Shown one piece after another: positions 16,992 to 23,257 of a stretch of DNA of 32,000 bases. The stretch's first letter is position 1; each line of letters opens with the position of its first letter. This DNA comes from Candidatus Hermodarchaeota archaeon. GTDB lineage: Archaea > Asgardarchaeota > Heimdallarchaeia > Hodarchaeales > Hodarchaeaceae. Made by a program: the position numbers and the translations under genes. A model generated the notes under the pieces. The model saw nothing but the letters and a program-made list of their open reading frames with translations, had not been told where the DNA came from and made no database searches. The DNA is taken from NCBI GenBank assembly GCA_048886185.1, contig JBHLKY010000019.1:30001-62000 (forward strand), read 5' to 3'.

Positions 16992-18161
16992 CTAAGCTCT
17001 ATGACTTAAAAATGGCATTAATGTTAGTTGGCCTTGCTTACTTTTCAGAGATGCAACACGGACACCTATTAATCGTACTTTTTTTGATGATGATCTAAAT
17101 TCATTTAGGAGTTTGTTCGCAGAATTCAAAATCACCATCTCATCGTCAATATAATTACTGAAGCTTGAACTTCTCATGAACGTCTCATAACCTTGAAATC
17201 GTATTTTAATTGATACGTTTCGGGTCATAAGATTATTTTTATGGAGTTTATCAGTAAGTCTAGAAATAATATCTCTCACTTTTGATTCAATAAGGTTCCA
17301 ATCACTTTGGTCTGTTCCAAAGGTTCTTTCAGAACCAATCGATTTTCGTTCTCCCCTTGTGTATCCTACTTCTTTATAATTAGTCCCCTGAGTCACTTTT
17401 CGTAAATACAATCCATAATCTCCAAGAAGAAGAAAAGCTCTTTCTCGAGACATTGTTGCAATGTCTCCAATGGAACTTATCTCTTTATTATGTAAGCGAT
17501 TCTCGGTTTTTTTACCGACCCCCACAATTTTCCTTACTGGTAAATGATATATTTTTTCTTCTAATTCTGAATTGTGAACGATTGTAATTCCACTGGGCTT
17601 ATTTAGATCAGAAGCTATTTTAGCTATTGATTTAGTCTCTGCCACTCCTATTGACACTGATAGTGCTAAATCTTTACGAATTTCTGTTTGAATGGCTTTA
17701 GCAATGGATTCTGGAGAGGATCCGTAGGCTTGCCATGAATTTGTTGCATCAATATAGGCCTCATCCACCCCTGCTTGTTGGAATTTGTCTCCATATTTTT
17801 GGAGTCTTGACATGACCGCTTTTGATTCCACATGATAATCTGAAAAAGAAATCTGGCTTCCAGAACATATGTATACACCATGTTTACATAAATTATATGC
17901 TTGAGAGATAGGCATACCTGAATGTAATCCAAATTTTCGAGCCTCATAAGAACAGGTTGATACTACACCACGTCCATTCCCCTTTTGGGGATCCGAACCG
18001 ATTATGACTGGGAATCCTTTAAGAAATGGATTATATTTTATATGGACACTCGCAAAAAAGGAATCTAGATCCACATGTAGAATTACATACTTCCATTCCA
18101 ATAAAGAATCACCATATTTTAAATGTCCGTATAGCATTAAATAACTTTGAACCACCATCAT
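16992..18161 (-). CDS. dinB: Y-family DNA polymerase IV (DinB/Dbh/Dpo4)
   Basis: HVDLDSFFAS, GVVSTCSYEARKFGLHSGMP, GVDEAYID, SIGVAETKSIAKIASDLNKPSG, KSIGSERTF and VRLIGVRV motifs; C-terminal QLTLMPFL clamp-binding motif. Confidence 0.95.
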   Translation of the reverse strand: MMVVQSYLMLYGHLKYGDSLLEWKYVILHVDLDSFFASVHIKYNPFLKGFPVIIGSDPQKGNGRGVVSTCSYEARKFGLHSGMPISQAYNLCKHGVYICSGSQISFSDYHVESKAVMSRLQKYGDKFQQAGVDEAYIDATNSWQAYGSSPESIAKAIQTEIRKDLALSVSIGVAETKSIAKIASDLNKPSGITIVHNSELEEKIYHLPVRKIVGVGKKTENRLHNKEISSIGDIATMSRERAFLLLGDYGLYLRKVTQGTNYKEVGYTRGERKSIGSERTFGTDQSDWNLIESKVRDIISRLTDKLHKNNLMTRNVSIKIRFQGYETFMRSSSFSNYIDDEMVILNSANKLLNEFRSSSKKVRLIGVRVASLKSKQGQLTLMPFLSHRA

Positions 18162-18253: not shown

Positions 18254-18969
18254 TTAAGTATTCCGAGTTAATGGAACCTCATTAAGAATATTTAATTCTT
18301 TTGTTGAAATAGGATCGTAAAAACACTTTACTGCACAAACCTGAACTTCTCGACTAATTGCTTCCGTTAGTTTATTAGAAAATAAGGGATCAATTTGGTT
18401 GTTTAGTTTAAAAGCATCAACATCGCTTCTCTTAATTATAAAAACCAAGAATGATTGAAATTTCTTCATAGCTCTTGTCAAGTCATTTAAATGCTTTACT
18501 TCCCGTTTCGTGGGGCTATCTGGGAAAAGTGCAACTCTATTTTTAGCTAATGTGAGGCTTTTTACTTCAATCAGTGCTTTTTGATTGGTCTCTGTGTTAG
18601 CATTAGGAAGTCAAACCGACTTTTACCATAGTTATACCAAGATTGGATGATTCTTAATCCTTTGAAACGGGATATTCTATAAAATTCTTCTTTAAACAAT
18701 CGATTTGTTTGTTGTGAATCAATATTGACCCAAGTTTCTTTTGTTTTTACGCCAACTAATGAGTATTGAGTTTTACGAGTAGGATTAGATCTCTTCTGAA
18801 GGATAACTGGAGTATTCTGTAGTAATAATTCTTTTAATCTCCCTGGATCTGCGACATGTGCTTCCACAAGAAAAGTTGACTGATTTGCAGATCCGAGTTC
18901 AATTTTTGCCAAGAAGCGGGTTGGTCGTCCTATAAATTTTCCAAGTGCATAAGATCCTGTACACTTCAT
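18254..18969 (-). pseudogene. sfsA: Frameshifted sugar fermentation stimulation protein A (SfsA nuclease family)
   Basis: The 5' part gives RPTRFLA...AHVADPGRLKELL...RKTQYSL...WVNIDS...YGKSRFDFL. A second frame continues ...QKALIEVKSLTL...ALFPDSPTKREVKHL...IDPLF to TAA 18254-18256. One base is missing somewhere in 18574-18610. Confidence 0.85.
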
Positions 18970-20682: not shown

Positions 20683-21765
20683 TTATGATGTATTGAAAAA
20701 TTGGTCAAGATTCGTTTTTTGAGAGGTTTTTGTATTATTACGGTCTTTTTTAATGTTTATCATATGGTTAATCCATGATTTAGTCATTTTTTTCGGAAAA
20801 ATACGATTAAGTTCTCTTATGAGTGATTCTAGAGTTAAAGAGTCATCCTCTCTGATTCGGTTGTACGTATATTGCATAACCTGAAAGAATTGAGTCGTAC
20901 CAAAAACCTTGTATTGCGCTTCAATGGCGGGTTGTTTCCATTTTTCTCTAATTCGTGTATAAATTAGATCTGCATACTCCCTATTTATCTCGTAACCTAT
21001 TCCTTTTCTTAACGTCAGTCGGCATATTTTAAGAGTGGTTCCTGAGCCTAAGAAAGGATCTAAAACTGTTTCCCCTACCATGGTGTGCATTCTTATCAAT
21101 CTGTATGGAATATCTTCTGGGAAAGGCGCAGAATGTCCGAAACGATTTTCACCTTTTGAATCAATCTTAAAAACAGGAGTAATATCATCCCAGAAACATC
21201 GTACGGCCCAATGTCGCCATTCATTTTTCGAGAGTGAACTTTGAGCTAAAGCTTGTTTTGAAGCCTTTCTCGTTTTACCAGGTTTGACCCATACAAATAT
21301 TTGTTCGAAACCAGTATTAGAAGCAATATTCGTTGGCTTGGGATAACTGCCCCAAGATACATTAGAGACATATTCTGCTTTGTCCCAATAGTGCATACCT
21401 GATAAAAAAAATCGTTTTTGTCTCATGAACTTTTCAATATCCCACATAATGTTCTGGATTATTCGACGGTTAAATCCTGATCGGCTACTTTCAACTGGGA
21501 GTGGTTGAATATTAATAGCAATTTTACCATTGGGCTGTAAAACCCGAATACATTCTTTCCAAACATTGTTTAATGATTTAATATAATTATCATAGTTTTG
21601 TCCGAAACCTATCTGTTCTCCTCCATAATCACGAACATTCCAATAAGGAGGTGAGGTAACAACTAAAGTTACGGACTCAGATGGAATCTCTGTCATGCTT
21701 TCAGATGACTTGAAATAGACCAACTGGCCATCAATTTCTAATTTATCTGATTTATTATATTCCAT
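20683..21765 (-). CDS. Orphan amino-DNA methyltransferase (beta class, SPPY; likely N4-cytosine) with C-terminal extension
   Basis: Motif IV VTSPPY comes before HSAPFP and motif I LDPFLGSGTT (beta order). An ~80-aa extra C-terminal region ends QKTNLDQFF. No restriction endonuclease ORF is adjacent. Confidence 0.9.
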   Translation of the reverse strand: MEYNKSDKLEIDGQLVYFKSSESMTEIPSESVTLVVTSPPYWNVRDYGGEQIGFGQNYDNYIKSLNNVWKECIRVLQPNGKIAINIQPLPVESSRSGFNRRIIQNIMWDIEKFMRQKRFFLSGMHYWDKAEYVSNVSWGSYPKPTNIASNTGFEQIFVWVKPGKTRKASKQALAQSSLSKNEWRHWAVRCFWDDITPVFKIDSKGENRFGHSAPFPEDIPYRLIRMHTMVGETVLDPFLGSGTTLKICRLTLRKGIGYEINREYADLIYTRIREKWKQPAIEAQYKVFGTTQFFQVMQYTYNRIREDDSLTLESLIRELNRIFPKKMTKSWINHMINIKKDRNNTKTSQKTNLDQFFNTS

Positions 21766-21777
21766 TTGCCTTTCCTT

Positions 21778-22374
21778 TCATGTCTCTTTCAAATTAAGGG
21801 AATATGTTTCTTTTATTGATTTTGATTGCCGCCAATAAATGGGTTTAAATTTTCCTAGGTTAAATGCCCAATTATCTATTATTTTATCATCAATTAATAC
21901 CTCCACTACTTCTCCAATAAACAAATCGTGGTCCCCAGTGATGATAATTCTTTGTAATTCACATTCAAGATTAATGAGACATTCTTTTAATCGAGGGGCT
22001 TCAATCTTGTTTGATGCCTCAATGGTAAATCCAGCTTCTTTGATTTTCTGAGGTTTCTCGCGACCACTGTGACTACCAATATGATAACTTCCTTCGATCT
22101 GGGTTATATTCGGAATATTTACTACAAACTCTTCATTTTGCCTTATTAGTTCATGTGAATATCTATATCTACTTATAGAAACTCCTAGTAATGGTGGTGT
22201 GACTGATAATGGGCATGACCAAGCGATAGTTAATGCGTTTGGATTGATAACAGTTCCTGATGAGACTAAAACAGTAAGTCTAGGGTATAGATAGCGATAA
22301 GCAGTACTCAAATCTGAGATTGGATGTTTCATGATTCTATTTCCTTTATTATTAGCTCCAATAGTATTTTTCAA
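21778..22374 (-). CDS. Flavin reductase-like family protein
   Basis: YPRLTVLVSSG, EFVVNIP, GSHSGR, APRLKECLINLECEL and GDHDLFIGEV. The true start may be Met15. Confidence 0.88.
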   Translation of the reverse strand: MKNTIGANNKGNRIMKHPISDLSTAYRYLYPRLTVLVSSGTVINPNALTIAWSCPLSVTPPLLGVSISRYRYSHELIRQNEEFVVNIPNITQIEGSYHIGSHSGREKPQKIKEAGFTIEASNKIEAPRLKECLINLECELQRIIITGDHDLFIGEVVEVLIDDKIIDNWAFNLGKFKPIYWRQSKSIKETYSLNLKET

Positions 22375-22375
22375 T

Positions 22376-23257
22376 TTATAATCTAAAATTTCTTAATAGT
22401 TCTAAATTCTGTTGATCACTTATTTCTTGGTCTTTTGGGGTTTCTAGGATCATTGATAATTTCTTAAAGCGGGGATTTTGCATTAGTTCGATAAAACATT
22501 CTAATCCAATGTAACCTTTGCCAATATGTTCATGCTGATCAATTCCAGATCCAAGGGGGCCTTTAGAGTCATTAATGTGAAATATCTTGATTTTATTTTT
22601 CCCTATCACTTCTTCAATTTTATCTATAACCTCATTCAATCCTTCTGGAGAAGATATATCATAACCAGATGAAAAAGCATGAGCAGTGTCAAAGCAGATT
22701 CCGAAAAACTGTTCTTCCTCCATATTCCCAAAGATTCTTTCGAAATGTTCAACTTTACTTCCCCAAGTTTTTCTTTTGGCCGTTGAGTTCTCTAATAAAA
22801 TCATCGTGGAGATTTCCATGTGTTTCCTAGCTTTGTTTAAAGCTTTGCCAATCCGATCAGCAGCAAATTTTTCGTCCCGATTTTTTGGACTTCCTAGATG
22901 TGTAATAACATATGGAACTTTTAATATTACCATTTTTTCTACCTCTTGGATCAAGACTCTGACCGATTTTTCGTAAAGACTATCATCTGGAGAAGCAAGA
23001 TTTGGTAGGTACGGCATATGGATAGCAGTATCATAATAATTAGCAGCTACTGATTTTTGAATGAATCGTTTAATGATTTCAGGAGAAAGAGCTTGTTTCC
23101 CTGCCTCCCATCTTCTTGGTGGTCGTGTAAAAATTTGTAAGCATTCACATGTGCTTTGTAATCCGCGATCCACAGCAAGATCAATGGACTTGGCAATTGA
23201 TTTATGAGCACCTAATCTTGGTCCAATAGGATTTTCTTTGACCATATTAGTAATCAC
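22376..23257 (-). CDS. nfo: Endonuclease IV (AP endonuclease 2)
   Basis: LGAHKS, QIFT, HMPYLPNLAS, THLGS, LLENS, CFDTAH, FHINDSKGPLGSGIDQHEHIG and ILETP metal-ligand motifs. Confidence 0.93.
   Translation of the reverse strand: MITNMVKENPIGPRLGAHKSIAKSIDLAVDRGLQSTCECLQIFTRPPRRWEAGKQALSPEIIKRFIQKSVAANYYDTAIHMPYLPNLASPDDSLYEKSVRVLIQEVEKMVILKVPYVITHLGSPKNRDEKFAADRIGKALNKARKHMEISTMILLENSTAKRKTWGSKVEHFERIFGNMEEEQFFGICFDTAHAFSSGYDISSPEGLNEVIDKIEEVIGKNKIKIFHINDSKGPLGSGIDQHEHIGKGYIGLECFIELMQNPRFKKLSMILETPKDQEISDQQNLELLRNFRL

Follow-up and report, generated by a model that had tools for sequence, protein, structure and literature searches.

The window analysed here is a stretch of 32,000 nucleotides from a Candidatus Hermodarchaeota archaeon (assembly GCA_048886185.1, contig JBHLKY010000019.1, positions 30,001 to 62,000). 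Its minus strand encodes a protein of 360 residues that is almost certainly a beta-class DNA methyltransferase, and in which the catalytic core is followed by a three-helix domain, a variable polar and basic linker and a C-terminal LDQFF peptide that resembles the PCNA-interacting peptides (PIP boxes) of archaeal PCNA clients (Table 1; all positions are those of the window unless a contig is named). On balance, the evidence leans towards an orphan methylase, probably specific for N4-methylcytosine (m4C), that docks on PCNA through its tail and acts on newly made DNA.

Several lines of evidence identify the catalytic core. The open reading frame (ORF) is intact, with an ATG start, 360 codons and a TAA stop at 20683-20685, and Pfam N6_N4_Mtase (PF01555) matches residues 32-268 with 130.3 bits against a curated cut-off of 26.7 (E 1.3e-37). 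Motif IV precedes motif I ([SDN]PP[YF] before FxGxG); this circularly permuted order defines the beta class, to which the enzyme is therefore assigned. The last residue of motif I, T244, is invariant in an alignment of 37 homologues and nearly so in one of 54. The closest solved relatives are all beta-class DNA methylases, namely TTHA0409, a bdelloid rotifer N4-cytosine methyltransferase, M.BceJIV, CcrM, M.RsrI, M.MboIIA and M.PvuII. Foldseek searches with the methylase model returned TTHA0409 (E 1e-19), the rotifer enzyme N4CMT (6e-15) and CcrM (2e-14), and also M.RsrI, M.PvuII and M.MboIIA. TTHA0409 from Thermus thermophilus (PDB 2zie, 2zif and 2zig) is the closest solved structure, with a sequence match at E 1e-32, 30% identity over the whole core and a TM-score of 0.81 by target. 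The two proteins share the TSPPYW form of motif IV and an HxAPFP...DPFxGxGTT stretch, but the bacterial protein has 297 residues, ends shortly after the core and has neither a three-helix domain nor a PIP-like tail. CcrM, a fold match of the window methylase, also carries an additional C-terminal domain, of some 80 residues.

The target base can be suggested from the same comparisons. Motif IV aligns with the TSPPY of TTHA0409 and of the rotifer N4-cytosine enzyme; TSPPYW is common to the latter and the window methylase, SPPY is shared with M.PvuII as well, and the N6-methyladenine (m6A) enzyme M.BceJIV has DPPY. Therefore, m4C is a reasonable guess, and the window methylase is probably N4-cytosine-specific. 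Several homologues carry the JGI label cytosine-N4-specific, which is an automatic annotation. M.BceJIV scores about level with the N4-cytosine enzyme against the window methylase (E 7e-12 and 2e-12, respectively), and the best match, TTHA0409, comes with no stated specificity. Among the 119 best-listed homologues, which are 58-84% identical, the named sources are mostly Hodarchaeales, Heimdall-, Thor-, Loki-, Hel- and Hermodarchaeota bins. An earlier note, made from the sequence alone, had read this gene as an Asgard amino-methyltransferase with an SPPY...DPFLGSGT core, and the Pfam match, the motif order, the solved relatives and the closest named relatives (Hodarchaeales, Heimdall and other Asgard archaea) all agree with it.

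The region beyond the core was modelled with AlphaFold2 from 37 homologues (mean per-residue confidence, pLDDT, of 78.8). In the model, the catalytic core extends to about residue 273, and a short connector leads from it to three helices of high confidence. The final segment, residues 348-360, has pLDDT below 50, and its sole structure is a three-residue helical turn on L353-D354-Q355. The same picture was obtained when the C-terminal domain was folded in isolation. This is the layout that the earlier note had proposed, with about 80 extra residues forming a helical segment and then a linker, and its placement of QKTNLDQFF at 20695-20721 is exact: the nonapeptide is followed by NTS and the stop codon. 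The protein ends in ...SQKTNLDQFFNTS, and its C-terminal tail reads QKTNLDQFFNTS. The helical domain has invariant residues of its own (Q, Y, K, G, F, K, T, S, W and H in 25 members of the Hodarchaeales-type clade), and it is thus a real domain, not a linker. Foldseek found no counterpart of its fold in the PDB with an E of 0.001 or lower. The highest Z among 48,161 chains compared by VIA-align was 4.7, which is under the meaningful level for helical bundles. Matches in the ESM Atlas reached TM 0.55 at most and tended towards HTH_28/HTH_23 and homeodomain-like folds, and the Atlas feature search yielded no usable match. The domain may assist DNA binding or positioning, for which helix-turn-helix-like DNA binding is a lead from these models.

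Table 1. Positions of the methylase, its parts, its neighbours and related genes discussed in the text (window positions, or contig and positions in the host genome)
Feature	Position	Strand	Basis and remarks
Whole gene, 360-residue beta-class DNA methyltransferase, probable orphan	20683..21765	-	Stop codon included; ORF list and translation; PF01555 E 1.3e-37; Foldseek best match TTHA0409 2zif, E 1e-19
Catalytic core, residues 1-276	20938..21765	-	Pfam match over residues 32-268; 58-76% identity across Asgard homologues, long invariant blocks
Motif IV SPPY, residues 38-41	21643..21654	-	T37-S38-P39-P40-Y41-W42 invariant in alignments of 37 and 54 homologues
Motif I DPFLGSGTT, residues 236-244, AdoMet (S-adenosylmethionine)-binding loop	21034..21060	-	D236 P237 F238 L239 G240 S241 G242 T243 invariant in both alignments
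Extra C-terminal three-helix domain, about residues 284-346	20728..20916	-	AlphaFold2 helices 290-306, 312-322 and 329-346, pLDDT 83-95; conserved QYKxFG...FPxKxTKSWIxHL
Polar/basic variable linker, about residues 341-352, DRNNTKTSQKTN	20710..20745	-	pLDDT drops to 58, then 45; sequence unconserved between orthologues
PIP-like core L353-D-Q-F-F357	20695..20709	-	NTS (3 residues) between core and C-terminus; motif statistics and likeness to host RNase HII, RFC large subunit and Fen1
Flavin reductase-like gene	21778..22374	-	Pfam PF01613 E 1.2e-31; 12 bp upstream of methylase start, same operon
Endonuclease IV-type AP endonuclease gene	22376..23257	-	Pfam PF01261 E 2.8e-36; first gene of apparent operon; synteny in L002, L003 and P0032 contigs
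DinB/Dpo4-type Y-family polymerase	16992..18161	-	Pfam IMS, IMS_C, IMS_HHH; canonical C-terminal PIP box QLTLMPFL (QLTLMPFLSHRA)
SfsA, apparently split	18254..18969	-	132-residue ORF with SfsA_N (18571-18969) and 75-residue ORF (18254-18481)
PIP-tailed PF01555 methylase	C1:179413-180219	-	Tail INLDSFL
PIP-tailed PF01555 methylase	C5:5461-6408	+	Tail KLTDYLE
PIP-tailed PF01555 methylase	C4:35833-36882	-	Tail KTLQNFF
PIP-tailed PF01555 methylase	C9:191605-192402	+	Tail NLDSWLVTTKK
Unrelated beta-class methylase, 254 residues, DPPF (L045)	G000:C23:5727-6491	+	Ends KQSTLESYLE, canonical PIP box
Host PCNA	G000:C9, L001:1492-2349	+
Rad51-like protein, 268 residues	C5:149349-150155	-	Strict PIP end ...KQQIPLTEFW
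DUF72 protein	C4:74601-75428	-	Strict PIP end ...RQMSLKDFF
NreA-like radical-SAM/helix-hairpin-helix protein	C18:28137-29294	+	Strict PIP end ...RQTRIREFFQ

A single LxxFF-type terminus is by itself not improbable: within the last 12 residues of host ORFs of at least 120 residues, a tight LxxFF-type pattern occurs in 4.4% and a loose one in 12.7%. What exceeds chance is the conservation of the tail and its enrichment in methylases. The loose pattern ends 54 of the 117 family members with a complete extension, and the tight pattern ends 51 of them; the corresponding figure for outgroup beta-class methylases is 12 of 149 (Fisher p 1e-11), and these 12 include two fragments of the family of the window methylase and one member of a Marsarchaeota methylase cluster. 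In a tree built from the catalytic core alone, every one of the 15 sequences in the well-supported clade of the window methylase has the tail, which recurs in all four main subclades, and within the genus it is found in 12 of 15 complete orthologues. It also persists in subclades whose helical domains have diverged beyond recognition, as in ...FKSFDEFL, ...KTLLDFV, ...SLLKFIK and ...KSLDKFL. The earlier note had made conservation of the LxxFF end in orthologues the first check of its proposal, and had named loss of that conservation as grounds for abandoning it; the clade and subclade counts speak for the proposal.

Anchored on the Leu, the 54 tails have the consensus [Q/K/R]-[K]-[K/T]-[S/V/I]-L-[D]-[K/E/N/D]-[F/Y]-[L/F/I/V], a mean net charge of +2.2 over the 12 residues upstream of the Leu, and between 0 and 7 residues after the motif. 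The Leu-class, aromatic and final hydrophobic positions are fixed by the search pattern itself; the use of Leu at the first position (43/54), of Asp at the second (26/54) and the basic flank are not. Between orthologues, the linker varies and stays basic while the Leu, aromatic and hydrophobic positions remain the same. An HbYX or other terminus-anchored motif was considered and rejected, as the motif lies 0-7 residues from the end. Taken together, these sequence patterns indicate that the tail is very probably a short linear motif that selection maintains while the disordered tail around it evolves freely, and that lineages can drop. Among the members without it, 19 Hodarchaeales sequences end directly after helix 3, and a search of the tail-less family members for an N-terminal PIP box found none. 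Outside the family, a distant beta-class methylase cluster with Marsarchaeota names (P0262 / P0446) has the PIP-like end ...ESLDRFLKSTLDGF, and PIP-like methylase tails may thus not be confined to Asgard archaea.

The likely receptor of this motif, judged from its sequence and from structure models, is PCNA. The host genome has a single PCNA gene, which adjoins the genes for RFC's small and large subunits. A strict search for C-terminal PIP boxes with the canonical Gln among 3,539 host ORFs returned 16 proteins, eleven of which were given a Pfam check; the checked proteins include PolB, Fen1, DinB, an NreA-like radical-SAM/helix-hairpin-helix protein, a Rad51-like protein and a DUF72 protein. 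Because the search recovers these proteins, the organism uses C-terminal PIP boxes in the classical way. Host client tails with the Gln include QQALDKFF of Fen1 and QVNLMEFFG of PolB. In contrast, the ends of host RNase HII (...SKTLENYFNNKLFTR, core KTLENYF) and of the RFC large subunit (...AAEKKLTDYF) are Gln-less. Archaeal PIP motifs are known to lie at the extreme C-terminus in disordered regions, with positive flanks that raise affinity (PMC6881253), and Dpo4 binds PCNA without the Gln (PMC3504372). Similarly, LDQFF follows the hydrophobic-x-x-aromatic-aromatic/hydrophobic pattern, lies three residues from the end of the window methylase at pLDDT below 50, and belongs to a set of tails with a basic flank (mean charge +2.2).

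Docking was also modelled directly. PCNA residues 1-258 and methylase residues 311-360 were co-folded with alignments of 43 and 54 rows, respectively, and gave an interface score (ipSAE) of 0.41 (runs of 0.45, 0.41 and 0.40), compared with 0.21 for the best control. The runs agreed in at least 82% of contacts and had a partner pLDDT of at least 50. In the calibration, the mark that this score passes was reached by 58 of 80 solved complexes and by 2 of 110 mismatched pairs. Complexes of PCNA with PIP peptides have already been solved, and the pass may therefore partly reflect memory. The co-fold with host PCNA that the earlier note had proposed thus comes out in its favour as to the mark, at a strength that makes it mild, weak support for docking.

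Two side observations concern PCNA and its clients. The host protein ends in a poly-acidic tail of about 30 residues with DWDE-type repeats, which is kept in Hodarchaeales homologues and could attract the basic flanks of client tails. Additionally, if the DUF72 protein is indeed a PCNA client, this would offer a lead to its function.

The genomic context of the methylase is consistent with an orphan. The endonuclease IV, flavin reductase-like and methylase genes are packed co-directionally (20683-23257), with 1 and 12 bases between genes and the methylase last. Homologues of 72% and 65% identity stand in this same three-gene order, with the same flanking EamA transporter, response regulator, tetratricopeptide repeat (TPR) protein, SfsA and DinB. 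No nuclease-like gene adjoins the methylase in the window, where the neighbours are the response regulator, the flavin reductase-like and endonuclease IV genes, the EamA transporter, the TPR protein, SfsA and DinB. The gene has altogether different neighbours in four lineages that are more distant, where no nuclease adjoins it and no candidate partner gene is shared; across the six contexts compared, no nuclease partner lies beside it. The observation of the earlier note that no cognate restriction enzyme is nearby therefore extends beyond the window. An orphan context with a kept gene order is the pattern of a persistent archaeal orphan methylase (PMC10609329, PMC6471742), and the gene is probably a persistent orphan that is inherited chromosomally, as judged at the level of the locus. 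The operon partners endonuclease IV and flavin reductase were inspected for convincing PIP-like ends of their own, and none were found. The DinB gene lies about 2.5 kb from the methylase, and its tail is identical in the orthologue at L002.

The family is compact and unevenly distributed. Clustering of a library at 50% identity leaves one representative for the whole family, and the next protein scores 298 bits versus 605. Orthologues were sought in 301 species genomes of the phylum at E below 1e-140. Within the window's genus, 16 of 20 genomes have one; of two other families, one has orthologues in 5 of its 7 genomes (with one partial match at E 8e-84) and the other in 2 of 68. The remaining families searched among these genomes gave none, and one large family has only a 42-44% identical relative of about 280 residues without the extension. 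The gene is thus persistent in the genus and patchy in the phylum.

Several observations weigh against a clamp-docking orphan. QKTNLDQFF does not fit the strict consensus Q-x-x-[LIM]-x-x-[FYW]-[FYWL], as its Gln is out of register by one; the earlier note had already pointed this out, and the Gln indeed stands four residues ahead of the Leu instead of three. Nor is the Gln conserved: across the 54 tails, this position is Q in 13, K in 12 and R in 11. The motif is missing from about half of the family, among them a Hodarchaeales clade of 19 members and a complete 4.4-Mb Loki-type genome, and well-supported branches of the core tree force at least nine changes between tail presence and absence. 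PCNA docking must therefore be dispensable for the enzyme in these lineages. The co-fold score falls in a weak band, in that scores of 0.60 or less account for 7 of the 80 solved complexes and for both of the passing mismatches. Finally, the patchy distribution also fits horizontally moving methylases, and an unlinked restriction enzyme is possible among the roughly 25 PF01555 genes of the genome.

The absence of the motif from half of the family, together with its frequency among host ORFs at large, would be expected if the LxxFF end were a functionless, chance feature of a low-complexity tail. However, the motif is enriched about ninefold over outgroup methylases (p 1e-11), is fixed in 15 of 15 clade members beside a varying linker, and turns up again in subclades with C-terminal domains too diverged to be recognised. 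A chance origin is already disfavoured by these conservation data and is highly improbable. Alternatively, the tail could be a real, selected motif with a receptor other than PCNA, such as another replisome or chromatin hub, the enzyme's own core (in autoinhibition) or a dimer partner. The displaced and unconserved Gln, the weak co-fold, in which an unrelated protein in place of PCNA still reaches 0.21, and the loss of the tail from lineages that keep the gene are all compatible with such a receptor. Yet the position, spacing, basic flank and residue preferences of the tail match those of host RNase HII, RFC large subunit and Fen1. Because two of these clients are themselves Gln-less (RNase HII and the RFC large subunit), the out-of-register Gln is not a strong objection to PCNA, and the window motif is, on its sequence, a Gln-less PIP box of the same kind. 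Additionally, the same ending occurs on unrelated methylase cores, in one case as a fully canonical QSTLExFL, which argues for a common external receptor of DNA enzymes, and a variable distance of 0-7 residues to the C-terminus does not fit terminus-anchored motifs such as HbYX. A non-PCNA receptor is thus unlikely.

The remaining objections bear on orphan status. The enzyme could belong to a normal restriction-modification system with a nuclease that is encoded at another locus or escapes recognition, in which case its PIP-like end would be incidental or would serve only the rapid protection of new DNA from self-restriction. The genome has about 25 PF01555 ORFs, type II nucleases are hard to spot by sequence (PMC10609329), the phylum distribution is patchy, and at one Helarchaeota locus a self-contained Type IIG enzyme lies 1 kb from the methylase. 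Against this, several species keep the gene together with endonuclease IV and flavin reductase in a conserved housekeeping operon, no partner gene is shared across six different contexts, and the core is unusually conserved (58-76% identity and one 50%-identity cluster), which fits persistent orphan methylases (PMC10609329). A restriction-modification role is therefore improbable, and the clamp-docking orphan remains the preferred interpretation.

We infer a mechanism in which the tail would occupy the hydrophobic pocket of the host's one PCNA; the inference takes in the binding to PCNA, the m4C chemistry, the timing with respect to replication and what the helical domain does. Clamps that stay behind on newly replicated or repaired DNA would gather the enzyme there, its catalytic core would move a methyl group from AdoMet to a short DNA site, and hemimethylated sites would be re-methylated soon after synthesis. 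With endonuclease IV in the operon and DinB nearby, a connection to repair synthesis, alongside replication, would also be in keeping. If the tail, like the PIP box of the Tetrahymena AMT6 complex, affects kinetics without being essential, this would explain the tail-less half of the family.

The window methylase is not the only enzyme of its kind in the genome. Six of the approximately 25 PF01555 ORFs have a PIP-like end, compared with 4.4% of all ORFs (p 6e-4), and their tails are INLDSFL, KLTDYLE, TLQNFF, TLESYLE, NLDQFFNTS and NLDSWLVTTKK. For instance, the methylase on contig C4 is a 30%-identical paralogue of the window enzyme with the same layout of core, extension and tail. The 254-residue DPPF methylase, which is unrelated to it, was returned by the strict search; it is probably an m6A enzyme and looks like an orphan. 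All 60 of its closest homologues (at least 63% identity) keep a terminal L-[D/E]-x-[F/Y]-[L/F], most with the Gln in register (QSTLExFL-type), and more distant Sigyn-, Loki- and Helarchaeota members of its family keep the motif too. Clamp-coupled DNA methylation, in which marks on nascent DNA are restored by PCNA-riding enzymes, might thus be a general, selected property of Asgard orphan methylases, with six candidates in one genome and several unrelated families; this broader proposal is advanced tentatively.

The proposed enzyme combines features of systems that are already known separately. Archaeal PCNA clients (Fen1, RFC large subunit, RNase HII, PolB, Dpo4/DinB, NreA and NucS) have the same terminal peptide, hydrophobic-x-x-aromatic-aromatic, on a disordered basic tail, and Dpo4 likewise lacks a Gln in register (PMC3504372). 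The clients listed in reviews include no DNA methyltransferase (PMC4929162, PMC3504372), and the PIP of the window methylase is predicted here from sequence and co-folding and is absent from half of the family. Persistent orphan methyltransferases, such as the haloarchaeal CTAG m4C enzymes of the HVO_0794 group, other archaeal m4C orphans, Dam and CcrM, are stand-alone beta-class or related enzymes with no adjacent nuclease and with synteny within a taxon, like the window enzyme, and most of the persistent archaeal ones are m4C methylases (PMC10609329, PMC6471742). In contrast, the window enzyme is persistent at the level of the genus (16/20) and not of the phylum, and it has a PIP-like tail, whereas a clamp-docking peptide is not reported for the known persistent orphans in the cited literature.

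The same logic is proposed here as for DNMT1 and the Tetrahymena AMT6 complex, in which a PIP peptide brings a methylase to PCNA on new DNA and marks are promptly restored. The AMT6 complex has a PIP box and is recruited by PCNA, and loss of the PIP box delays but does not abolish the re-methylation of hemimethylated DNA (PMC11761967). However, the likeness is one of mechanism and not of membership. DNMT1 is a C5 enzyme with its PIP in the N-terminal region and AMT6 is an MT-A70 enzyme, so that the catalytic families are unrelated or distantly related to that of the window enzyme; the eukaryotic PIP is internal or N-terminal rather than C-terminal; and PCNA binding and a preference for hemimethylated DNA are proven for DNMT1 and AMT6, whereas the likeness of the window enzyme is read from its sequence. 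No paper was found in the literature on a PIP-tailed or PCNA-linked archaeal DNA methylase, and the nearest hint is a putative adenine methylase that co-purifies with NucS from Pyrococcus abyssi extracts (PMC4929162). Persistent archaeal m4C orphans and archaeal PIP-box clients are already known, and what appears to be new is the combination of both in one archaeal methylase.

Two further observations concern the window itself. SfsA is represented by two ORFs in the window (Table 1), while the syntenic L002 and L003 loci have a single SfsA of 240 residues; the split could reflect a frameshift, a pseudogene or an assembly error. Among the listed public runs, no RNA data contain the methylase stretch, which is present only in four sediment metagenome runs of one study, possibly its source.

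The replication-coupled restoration of methylation through PCNA is regarded as a eukaryotic device, used by DNMT1 and the ciliate AMT6 complex, while bacterial and archaeal methylases are thought to encounter hemimethylated sites through diffusion. In the lineage closest to eukaryotes, orphan methylases of prokaryotic type appear to have been equipped with clamp-docking tails, repeatedly and on unrelated cores. If this is true, clamp-coupled epigenetic maintenance either predates eukaryotes or evolves readily where PCNA is a hub, and the tails would give a concrete handle on the role of many Asgard orphan methylases. Should the broader proposal also hold for Asgard archaea in general, then the logic of DNMT1 (5-methylcytosine) and AMT6 (N6-methyladenine) would already be at work, with prokaryote-type enzymes, in the archaeal relatives of eukaryotes.

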